Origin: Eledone cirrhosa
Lineage: Eukaryota
Direction of reading: 5' to 3'
NCBI GenBank assembly: GCA_964016885.1
Contig: OZ024746.1
Span: 19,468,001-19,532,000 of the forward strand
DNA: 64,000 nucleotides
Made by a program: the position numbers and the translations under genes. The notes under the pieces were generated by a model. That model did no database searches and was not told where the DNA came from. It saw only the letters and a program-made list of their open reading frames with translations. Shown here in pieces: positions 460-60,652 of this stretch; within the stretch, counting starts at the first letter, position 1; each line of letters begins with the position of its first letter.

Positions 460-660
460 TTTATTTTATAGAAGGAGCTTCTACAGGACTAGTACTGTTT
501 CATTCAGATGAAATCTTCAGGAGCTTCCTGAAGATTTCATCTGAATGAAACAGTACTAGTCCTGTAGAAGCTCCTTCTATAAAATAAAAAAATGTTTACT
601 CTGCCATGTATTGAGTACCTTACTTACTGTGGTTATCCCCGACTCAACCCGGGACCAACG
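460..660 (+). mobile_element. Fold-back (63-bp perfect arms, 3-nt loop) hammerhead-bearing element, probable Penelope-like pseudo-LTR remnant
   Basis: 460-522 is the exact reverse complement of 526-588; flanked by (TA)n on both sides; contains an HHR and the downstream ACTC..TTGAGT motif. Confidence 0.7.
519..575 (+). ncRNA. Type I hammerhead ribozyme
   Basis: Stem I aggagcttc(519-527)/gaagctcct(567-575); core CTGAAGA 528-534; stem II ttc-atct-gaa with a U.U at its base; GAAA 547-550; stem III ACAG-tactagtc-CTGT; cleavage triplet GUA after 566. Confidence 0.8.
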
Positions 661-758
661 TATATATATATATATATATATATATATATATTATGGAATA
701 CTGTTGGCTTCTTGCTACAATACTTTCTATACCTTTCATTCATTTATATATATGTAAA

Positions 759-806
759 TGGTAGCACAGTGGTCCGGATAACCAAAGATGTGGGTTCGAC
801 TCCCAT
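759..806 (+). mobile_element. tRNA-derived SINE head fragment
   Basis: A-box-like TAGCACAGTGG and B-box GGTTCGACTCCC, but no complete cloverleaf. Confidence 0.4.
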
Positions 807-1126
807 GTACGTCAATACTCATCTTTTTCCATTTCTCCGAGGGTTCTTAACCCCACTATCAGGCTAAATAATTTCTTTAATTTCTTTAGTCAAAATACGG
901 CGATAGCTTACATTTCTAATAATTTCAAACCAACTCGCTGTTTCGAAAATATTCTTACTATATATATATATTTATAACTCTATTACACGCACCCTCTCTA
1001 TTGTTTATATTATGTTATCTCCTGTTCTCAATATTAGGGTATAAATATTGAGTTTTGCCATAAGTTAATCACTACCTTGACTGAATCTTAACCATCTACT
1101 ATGTAAGGGTATGTCATGTATCCTTT

Positions 1127-1193
1127 TATTTTATCTGATGAGGACGTACTGTTGAACTTAACTCAGTACCTCTGAAATATGTATAATAAAATA
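1127..1193 (+). ncRNA. Minimal type I hammerhead ribozyme
   Basis: Stem I tattttat/ataaaata; CTGATGA 1135-1141; stem II gtactg..cagtac; GAAA 1174-1177; short stem III; AUA triplet. Confidence 0.7.
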
Positions 1194-1269
1194 TAATTGA
1201 TCACAAGAATATCTATTTTGTTAATATTTTGAATTTAAAAAAAATATATATATATATATATATATATAC

Positions 1270-1570
1270 GATATATTAACAAATGGAAACTATATTTATA
1301 AAACCATATTTATTTCATGATACATATATTTCAAGGACACTAAGTCAAATTATGGTGCGCTTTCATCAGATAAAATATAATATAGATCAGTTTTATAAAT
1401 AAATATTGACATATCCTTGAAATATGTATAATGAAATAAATATGGTTTTATAAATATAGTTTCCATTTGTTAATATATCTTATTTTTACTCCAATAATTT
1501 GTTGAGTGCTTTATATCAGTTATAAAAATATTTGCTTGTTGTATCCCAACAATTTAAATAGAACTTCTAC
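1270..1570. mobile_element. Inverted-arm pseudo-LTR-like element carrying an HHR (family shared with 12847-13020 and 52950-53190)
   Basis: 1270-1337 is the near reverse complement of 1414-1479; near-identical sequence at 52950-53190; (TA)n flanks. Confidence 0.7.
1311..1377 (-). ncRNA. Minimal type I hammerhead ribozyme
   Basis: Minus strand: tattttat CTGATGA aagcgcac..gtgtcctt GAAA tatatgta TC atgaaata. Confidence 0.7.
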
Positions 1571-58309: not shown

Positions 58310-58530
58310 AAGGGCGATGGATTGGCAGTATCGGTAGAGGGTCGGACGCCATGCTTTGCAGTTTAGAGTTACGGCCCTTTATGATCTGAGTTCAAATCCC
58401 GCCGAGGTTAACTTTGCCTTTCGTCCTTGTGGGGTCGATGAAATAAAGTACCAGTCACGCACTGGGATCAATTTAATCGACTTTCCCCTCCCCAAAATTG
58501 CTGGCCTTGTGCCTATATAAGAAACCAATA
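58310..58530 (+). mobile_element. SINE family A
   Basis: Core match. Confidence 0.8.
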
Positions 58531-59347
58531 TTCTAGTCCTTAAATCACGGGTTCCCTATAAATTTACACCCAGGTCTAAATATCTTCTACTCAGGGAGTA
58601 AATTTGATGATTCCCGGACCGGGCGATACATTATGTCCTTGAACAAGACACTTTATTTCACGTTGCTCTTTCTTTATGTCAAGAGTTGCGACTGGTAGAT
58701 GGTATCAGCAATAGAAAGACCAATGGAAGCATTATTTCCTTGGTCCGATTTGACGAGTTCCACCCCACTCGGTAAGTGAATGAGGCGTGGAGTCTTGTCT
58801 ATGGGAATTCTCTCATTGGTTGACTTCTCATTATCTGAATACTTCTAAAGGAATTTTCGGCCTTGAAATTGCGAAGATATTTTCAGTGAGTTAGTATGTT
58901 TCCCCACTCGCCATATTCAGACTGCGAAACTATTTGTATGTTTGCAGCACGCGCGCGCATATATGTATGTGTGCATGTATGTATGTATGTGTACGTGTGT
59001 GCATGTGTGTGTTTGTGTGTATGCATGCGTGTGTATATGTGTGTGTGTGTGTGTCTGTCTGTGTGTATATGTGTATGCGTGCTTTTGGGTGTGTTTGTTT
59101 TTGTGTGTGTATGTGTGTGTGTCTGTATGTGTGTGTACATATGTATATCCAACTAAAACTTTTCGTCTAAGAAGTAATGTTTACGATAAAATTAGTTTGC
59201 TCATCGCTGAAAGGGAGAAGTTTCCTTTCTCGACTTCCCCAGGAAATAAAGGAAAGACTTCAAATACAGAAAGACTTGTTGCTATTGGAAACAATCTGAA
59301 GACAGTAGTTCCTGTCGTTATATTTTAAGCAGAAACTATGGAAGCAA

Positions 59348-59545
59348 TAATAATTGTTTCTACTTTTGGCACAAGGCCAGCAATTATCCCAGTGCATTAC
59401 TGGTACTTTATTTCATCGACCCCGTAAGGATGAAAGGCAAAGTTAACCTCGGCGGGATTTGAACTCAGAATGGCAAGGGCCGTAACTCTATGCGTTAAAG
59501 CATGGTATCCGACCTTCTGCTGATACTGCCAATCCACCGCCATAA
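59348..59545 (-). mobile_element. SINE family A
   Basis: Core match. Confidence 0.8.
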
Positions 59546-60059
59546 TAATTGTTGGAAGGTGCGTGGGTTTAGATTTGGTTGCTATTTCTAGCAGGTGAGA
59601 TAACCGCATAGAGGCTCCCAATTTTGCCAGACTTTGTAGTTGGATATTGTTAATGGTGTAACCGTAGTAAGTTATTATTTAGTCCAAAGTTAGACCTGAT
59701 TAAGCAGACGCACGATCAGTCAAAAAATGTCATTTTTTTAATTGTGGTATTTCGTGTTGCTGTTGTTGTTGCTGTCGTTGTTGCTGTTGTGACTCTTGTC
59801 ATTTCTGCCATTAAAGAAAAGAGAAAAGAATAACATACAAACAGGAGTGGCATTCACGTTAACACTCTGGAAAATTTCAACCGAAAAGATTTAACCATAT
59901 GGAAATATTTGACACTATCTTGGAAAATATTTAGGATAAACATCTATATTTAGACTCTTAAACATTAGAGAAAACACAAACACTAGTTACACACACACAC
60001 ACACACACACATAGCGTTCATACGCACACACACACACACACGCAGGGACACGCATAAAT

Positions 60060-60255
60060 ATATTCATTTTATTAAGGCTAAAGAGTGAATCTTGTTACTC
60101 TGGAGTTTCTCCTGGTTTTCGCAGTCATCAGACGAGACCCTGTGTGATGCAGGCGAAATTCCTAAGTACAAATGTCACTACTCATATAGCCTTAATAAAA
60201 TGAATATTTAAACTCTACTTCGGCATTGAGTACTCTTTTCTCTCGACCGTCAACT
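60060..60255. mobile_element. Fold-back element with a minus-strand hammerhead (60090-60137)
   Basis: Arms 60060-60080/60187-60207; minus strand tctcgt CTGATGA ctg..cagga GAAA ctccagag TA acaaga. Confidence 0.7.
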
Positions 60256-60469
60256 ACATACCGATATATACATCTCTCTCTCTCTCTCTCTCTCTATATA
60301 TATATATATATATATATATATATATATATATATATATATAATATATATGTAACTGGGGGAGGGGGTAGGAGGGACATGTTGTGGAATAAAAAGAGGGGGT
60401 GGAGTGGGGGGCGTCTGATAAATTAATAAGCGGAGGTGGGGGCAATTATTCAAGATCTGAGAATACATG

Positions 60470-60652
60470 AATTATTGACGGACGTAAGAATGAACACTCA
60501 ATACCGAAGCGGAGTTTAAATATTCATTTATTATAGCTAATCCTTGATACTCTGGAGTCTCACCTACGTACTCACCAGACAAGACTGGTGATCCTGTGAG
60601 TGCGCAGGTGAAACTTTAGAGTAATAAAGGTCACTAATAGCCATAATAAATG
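60470..60652. mobile_element. Fold-back element with back-to-back degenerate hammerhead cores
   Basis: TCACCAG acaaga CTGGTGA (60572-60591); tcctgtg..cgcaggt GAAA ctttagag TA; arms 60525-60539/60638-60652. Confidence 0.65.

Follow-up and report, generated by a model that had tools for sequence, protein, structure and literature searches.

Head-to-head terminal-repeat units of Penelope-like elements in Eledone cirrhosa appear to turn around at a likely transcription start rather than on the hammerhead ribozyme

The window analysed here, 64,000 nt (33 per cent G+C) of the 3.0-Gb Eledone cirrhosa genome (assembly GCA_964016885.1, contig OZ024746.1, positions 19,468,001–19,532,000), contains seven inverted repeats that a sequence-only reading had described as about five families of fold-back elements centred on type I hammerhead ribozymes. 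Self-comparison of the window confirms all seven and sorts them into five families, A to E. Judged from their sequence, these units are head-to-head fragments of the pseudo-long terminal repeats (pLTRs) of Penelope-like elements with Hydra-clade motifs, inserted in (TA)n. The kind of element is already known; what is new is the reading of its inverted junctions. We propose, with moderate confidence, that the units arise from two target-primed cDNAs made on opposite target strands and joined at, or towards, the likely transcription start. The element's enzyme would prime one cDNA on each target strand, mostly on a single RNA, with a primer at the distal site giving the tailed arm and a primer at the proximal site giving the tail-less arm. 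Both cDNAs would run to or towards the 5′ end of the RNA and would presumably be joined there, and internal initiation close behind the start would give the short units.

The position at which the arms end carries much of the argument. Each arm was aligned outward to natural un-inverted copies, so that end positions are uncertain by a few bases; 96 of 100 arms were retained in family A, 116 of 117 in E and 92 of 94 in C, the others being cut by the locus edge or fitting another subfamily. Among the arms ending no more than 250 nt from the anchor (72, 108 and 80, respectively), 48 in A, 87 in E and 23 in C end within 11 nt of one point, and the next 5–24 nt upstream hold three, one and one. A natural 4-nt microhomology accounts in part for the family E ends at −4. 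In family C a 14-nt edge about 80 nt upstream of stem I takes 29 of the 80 ends (4.5 expected). The turn-around points are thus non-random, as had been claimed. Across the genome, both family E arms extend to the inferred +1 at 2,983 loci, with varied spacers. The same edge is visible in contigs built from four public runs of unassembled reads (three come from a single sample, which may be the one that was assembled), in which depth is about eightfold lower beyond the family E edge base and loose ends lie at it.

What the edge has in common between families points to a promoter. In A, B, D and E it is an AG lying 29–33 nt behind a TATA box, the distance from the first T of the box to the A of the AG being 29 nt in A (nine copies) and in E (six), 31–33 nt in D (five) and 32 nt in B (one). 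On this reading the edge would be the transcription start, and hence the RNA 5′ end, set by a promoter of the TATA/initiator (Inr) kind; the Inr consensus is general background behind this assignment, as the instability of palindrome centres is behind the question of centre deletion taken up below. The edge in family A is the first base of stem I, and copies of D and B, judged by eye, also begin at the AG that opens stem I. In family E it falls in loop II of a hammerhead with a U3-A8 core, and in family C it stands some 80 nt off the ribozyme altogether. Because the edge moves in this way, the axis would follow the promoter and not the ribozyme, and the hammerhead would sit at the axis only where it abuts or contains the promoter.

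This bears directly on the mechanism put forward in the sequence-only reading, in which nascent cDNA snaps back on a ribozyme-encoded helix and the fold is itself a replication signal. It is true that the edge coincides with stem I in three families and with loop II in a fourth, that 56 of the 72 family A ends and 102 of the 108 family E ends lie inside the ribozyme span, and that a natural 4-bp hairpin in the family E loop II matches a recurring junction. However, the ribozyme span of family C holds 10 of 80 ends where 13.7 would be expected, the reverse transcriptase (RT) would already have traversed the fold on reaching the family A edge, which marks its 5′ exit and not its entry, and a palindrome at 39334 has no hammerhead at all. 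Naiads, too, have inverted structures of this kind although they lack canonical hammerheads (PMC8557442). We therefore consider a ribozyme signal very improbable. The axis positions themselves had been placed about right at 460, 20480 and 60495, and the one at 47512 does correspond to loop II of the parent; the hairpin seen there in the window was made by the inversion itself.

An edge of this sort might instead be the 5′ end of a processed RNA, or mark splicing at the conserved AG. The AG follows pyrimidines in A, B, D and E, and in Drosophila virilis the 5′ end of helix I coincides with the end of an intron (PMC4209133). Yet the copies retain the AG and have no upstream exon joined to it, the TATA spacing is constant within families, family C lacks such an AG, and the hammerhead cut site is 3′ of stem III and not at the edge; this explanation seems to us unlikely.

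The tails suggest how many primers were involved. Among 78 head-to-head pairs, 74 have one tail, four have none and not one has two, whereas 17.6 two-tail units would be expected if the arms were independent. The tail-less arm is the longer in 6 of 18 unequal one-tail pairs in family A and in 13 of 15 in C, and it is longer by at least 3 nt in 10 of 41 one-tail pairs in E. If a tailed first strand had snapped back on itself, the other arm could not extend further 5′; the combination of exactly one tail per unit with a tail-less arm that is often longer is therefore what favours two primers over snap-back. Two primers acting on one RNA at the two boundaries of the tail would be the simplest joint account of the tails and of the subfamilies shared between arms. 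Such behaviour has a biochemical parallel in a Penelope protein that, in vitro, cuts each strand of the target and extends both; its RT starts at two sites that flank the tail, and it does not depend on ribozyme cleavage (PMC11167929).

Self-priming, which the sequence-only reading had also invoked, is weakened by these arm lengths; it survives in a form that makes the ribozyme incidental. In that form a single cDNA is extended to the 5′ end of the RNA, folds back by means of microhomology or added bases and is itself copied into the second arm, and which arm looks longer is scrambled by later loss of sequence from the centre. We regard this as a real but doubtful possibility. It accounts for one tail per unit and for palindromic spacers, and self-priming has already been proposed (PMC3846280). 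At the 85 loci with a 460-type junction, the tailed arm is the longer in 57, in keeping with snap-back, and the shorter in 28. Random deletion at the centre predicts a ratio of 50:50, but A (57:28) and C (2:13) depart from it in opposite directions (p 0.002 and 0.007), which weighs against the deletion account. In addition, zero-loop perfect palindromes on natural 4-nt self-complementary words would better fit two annealing ends, and units with arms of two subfamilies exist. Three of these (loci L136, L198 and L231) are trusted and a fourth, L155, is an artefact; pairs differing at two or more common sites number 1 of 56 in A, 3 of 72 in E and 4 of 14 in C.

Several observations weigh against two-primer joining at the transcription start. 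The arms of family E pairs share a subfamily in 42 of 47 cases (13.3 by chance), and rare variants are common to both arms in 5 of 56 A, 20 of 72 E and 4 of 14 C pairs; snap-back predicts both kinds of sharing as well. Later deletion at the palindrome centre could mimic a longer tail-less arm. Many central spacers are near-perfect palindromes, A then T, and could be self-copied, and up to three of the central A/T bases are templated in some (TTT) subfamilies. The placement of +1 rests on motifs and on the edge, and in family C, whose edge is less sharp and whose TATA-like box is closer than is canonical, the assignment is weaker. In D. virilis, Penelope is transcribed from an internal promoter that has no TATA box (PMC2377424). 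Finally, the arm samples are exact-motif loci taken mostly from the start of one contig, which biases them to young copies, and arm ends 3′ of the anchor are invisible to the alignment.

The junctions vary, with microhomology or short inserts. Non-templated A tails were tried as an explanation of whole spacers and proved partly wrong: up to three A/T bases are templated, and runs of 4–17 exceed the template. At four loci (L068, L072, L210 and L222) A/T runs of 13–19 nt stand right at the family E edge, beyond the template, as slippage or non-templated addition might produce. Another locus (L203:660-1130) has three family E units arranged head to tail, each from +2, with TA-rich spacers between them in a retrozyme-like arrangement.

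One subfamily behaves differently from the others. The family B sample (22 rows, comprising 20 distinct head-to-head units and two duplicates) includes 14 units, that at 60495 among them, that share one junction and the same two unlike arms. In this subfamily, B3, the tail is on one arm type only, in nine units by pattern and in the window copy by eye, and on the other arm type in none. B3 therefore likely descends from a single palindromic master and, as far as its sequence can tell, moved as a whole palindrome. The earlier proposal that the units are mobilised in trans as palindromes thus keeps B3 and loses the other families. One master palindrome per family had seemed plausible while the first query contained the junction itself; position-ordered samples then showed many junction types, and the idea was retained for B3 only.

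It might also be asked whether the units are DNA-mobilised elements similar to miniature inverted-repeat transposable elements, or artefacts of assembly, given their terminal inverted arms, their TA-rich targets and the fixed structure of B3. Junctions nevertheless vary by copy; the one-sided tail lies outside the repeat, the centre is variable and there are no fixed termini formed by the repeat. The arms of long copies also continue into open reading frames (ORFs) for RT and endonuclease, and the read-derived contigs contain family E junction forms, including the fold-back form of 47512, as expected if the palindromes are not assembly artefacts. For A, C and E this explanation is largely refuted, and overall we give it hardly any credence.

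The hammerheads are less complete than had been supposed. A relaxed type I descriptor, which also allowed U3-A8 and CCGA core variants, gave six matches in the window, four of them convincing (528, 1135, 1369 and 40041) and two weak ones at chance level; a strict cut left three strong matches against one in 12 shuffles together. The claim that each of the seven units contains a type I motif stands for three, which are complete: 460 (core 528, plus strand), 1270 (1369, minus strand) and 39868 (40041, plus strand, a CCGAUGA variant). The match at 1135 is a solo motif outside the named units. The other four units contain remnants: in 20480 stem I is missing its 5′ strand, no more than the 3′ half of the hammerhead is present in 47512, the stems of 60060 are decayed and the core of 60495 is broken on both strands. 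Rfam returned no hammerhead at E≤10 for 20 short stretches, and none among the 150 matches listed of 425 for the whole window. The un-inverted parents of A, C and E, and the family D copy in the window, have the core and stems I–III of the descriptor.

Family E was at first read as lacking a ribozyme, a reading abandoned once the U3-A8 core turned up upstream. In its parent this core lies about 45 nt upstream of the edge, and the fold reaches the three-way junction as the minimum free energy structure with a z of −1.8. U3-A8 is kept in 11 of 13 cases, and the N7 position takes four letters. In the U3-A8 fold 92 per cent of cells are paired, with one compensatory change, a value that 40 of 500 shuffles matched or exceeded, so that the covariation is too thin to serve as proof. 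One family E subfamily, which combines C3 with A8, likely has an inactive ribozyme. At one parental locus (L363:17-128, minus strand) a loop II of about 37 nt contains a TATA-like box and an Inr-like start.

Derivation of the units from Penelope-like pLTRs, as the sequence-only reading had suggested, is borne out by the long copies, which run upstream into RT and endonuclease frames. Un-inverted promoter-bearing copies were found for all five families, and copies sit in (TA)n in the flanks examined. Exact motif matches across the genome number 2,827 for A, 9,134 for C and 21,315 for E, together with 176 and 112 for two family B motifs and 6 for D, each palindrome being counted twice; a DNA search yielded 2,764 candidates for family D. 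An RT (YRDD) followed by a YxG endonuclease lies upstream of family C and E repeats, and the end of an endonuclease lies upstream of family A repeats at three loci; for B and D no linked ORF was found. Pfam gave no RT match for the two RT-bearing frames scanned. The linked ORFs show Hydra-clade motifs, namely a CxCX5C linker in C and E and CxxC..E and N..CxH in A, C and E. DKT, in place of DKG, is present in a family C ORF (locus L237), the RWK position reads MWR in C, and this motif region was not recovered for A and E. Motifs of these kinds and (TA)n targets characterise the Hydra clade (PMC8557442), to which the parent elements may belong. At L184:1183-3534 (plus strand) a family A copy contains, nested within it, an element of another family with an uninterrupted Hydra-type RT-endonuclease frame of 784 aa in which both DKT and RWK are intact; this element was rejected as the family A parent because it bears its own, different terminal repeat.

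The RT/GIY-YIG frame near 62.9 kb had been named as a possible mobiliser of the units. It appears to belong to a Penelope-like element from a different clade, of which it is the C-terminal, GIY-YIG-like ORF end (62863–63564, plus strand), with a CX4CxxC linker. The frame had no Pfam match, blastp (E≤0.001) matched it to none of nine Hydra-type frames, of which eight are linked to the unit families and one is nested, and the DNA matches between this element and the units are only 12–19 nt, at chance level. A minimal hammerhead in its 3′ repeat (63823–63870, plus strand) has C3 changed to U; the core is canonical in 18 of 20 loci examined and unrelated to the hammerheads of the units. Given its other linker motif, the lack of a blastp match and its own unrelated hammerhead, the frame is an unlikely mobilising partner.

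Individually, the window units illustrate the range of junctions. The family A unit (455–660, plus strand) comprises a palindrome at 455–593 with arms 96 per cent identical and its axis at 524, and a 3′ tail at 594–660 on the right arm, all in (TA)n; its right arm begins at the inferred +1 and its left arm at +5. In the family C unit (1269–1570; inverted repeat 1270–1479, 78 per cent) the full hammerhead and about 45 nt upstream of it are in the left, minus-strand arm, and the right arm, which begins at the end of stem II, bears the tail and is the shorter. A second, rearranged family C copy lies at 53040–53190 (minus strand, core 53134). The family D unit (39870–40200; inverted repeat 39860–40209, 91 per cent) has a right arm that begins in stem I and a left arm that ends in the long stem II insert, the two separated by (TA)n, and no tail is seen. 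In the family E unit (47435–47627; inverted repeat 47512–47627, 93 per cent) the tail and left arm extend to the inferred +1 and the right arm begins at +7. Family B supplies the units named 20480, 60060 and 60495. The first is old (20449–20650; inverted repeat 20501–20647, 73 per cent; core 20571) with a tail remnant on the left arm, the second is decayed (60055–60263; inverted repeat 60060–60207, 69 per cent; core 60131, minus strand) with a tail on the right arm, and the third is the B3 unit (60440–60655, minus strand; inverted repeat 60517–60660, 72 per cent).

Other repeats share the window. An eighth, unlisted palindrome at 39334–39578 (245 bp, 95 per cent), the one without a hammerhead core, has un-inverted relatives at loci L085 and L381, from which it can be seen to be a head-to-head copy of another repeat. 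Two more hammerhead-core families occur as solo arms (1127–1190, plus strand; 39610–39720, minus strand) with relatives among the sampled loci, and different families are stacked within the same (TA)n tracts. A diverged palindrome of 183 bp (22372–22554, 74 per cent) has no relative among 391 sampled loci. The window also contains fragments of a non-LTR RT element with a PHD finger (25179–26703 and 18510–19008, both minus strand; Pfam RVT_1 and PHD), a tandem array that repeats roughly every 49 bp (56469–57042, related to 62198–62252), and a very abundant repeat similar to a short interspersed element, present in both orientations (5323–5475, 38175–38745, 50760–51370, 59346–59553 and others) and as an inverted pair at 8186–8354.

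The origin of the inverted terminal repeats of Penelope-like elements is stated as open in PMC8557442, and the standing proposal is self-priming at palindromic junctions on an antisense template (PMC3846280). In the literature searched, mostly open-access, no paper was found that places Penelope inverted junctions at a transcription start or invokes twin priming to explain them, and the available parts of PMC5932611 and PMC6431247 hold nothing direct on these junctions. Here the junction statistics, made possible by thousands of young short copies, favour the 5′ end of the RNA and a coupled pair of primers. We advance more tentatively the wider claim that coupled two-site priming on one RNA is class-wide, that in family E the promoter lies inside loop II, and that in B3 a palindrome turned into a mobile unit. 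If this is so, coupled two-site priming would account for the head-to-head arrangement of pLTRs, and for a tail on one side only, in Penelope-like elements as a class, and in family E only read-through RNA could contain the whole ribozyme. Through these units, short palindromes have also been introduced by the thousand into the (TA)n tracts of a 3-Gb animal genome.

Twin priming of L1 offers the nearest familiar scheme: the second target strand primes a second cDNA, the junction forms at microhomology, and non-overlapping parts of one RNA are inverted. Second-strand priming and microhomology joining would be shared with the present units, whereas here both arms copy the same stretch. Among Penelope-like elements, the C-terminal endonuclease-bearing (EN+) Hydra clade, including Hydra-1_Obim, shares (TA)n targets, type I hammerheads at the 3′ side, and an inverted 5′-truncated copy with a tail at one end, which may be either end; shared with the linked ORFs are the CxCX5C linker, the CxxC and CxH motifs that flank the conserved E and N and, in family C, DKT (PMC8557442). 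In contrast to what is described there, short head-to-head pLTR units dominate here, with thousands per family, and their junctions map to one edge; tails are 60–150 nt rather than 30–40, and family E has a promoter-like motif in loop II of a U3-A8 variant. Penelope elements of Adineta vaga share head-to-head pLTRs, palindromes at the junction, an optional tail and a TATA plus Inr-like motif in the pLTR, but antisense self-priming was proposed for them from few copies, whereas the counts here favour the 5′ end of sense RNA and two primers (PMC3846280). The mechanism worked out in vitro for Poseidon PAc parallels the one proposed here in its two RT start sites on either side of a tail, AT-rich targets, cutting and extension of both strands and dispensable ribozyme cleavage; PAc belongs to another clade, its ribozyme overlaps the ORF start, and the available parts of that account offer no explanation of inverted junctions (PMC11167929). 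Hammerheads in pLTRs, opposite-strand pairs 100–700 bp apart and the U3-A8 core variant have been described (PMC4209133). Animal non-LTR retrozymes are likewise short non-coding units derived from pLTRs with type I hammerheads, but they form head-to-tail tandems, whereas the units described here are head to head, many are without a complete ribozyme, and most would be made afresh at each insertion (10.64898/2026.07.22.740005; PMC4209133).

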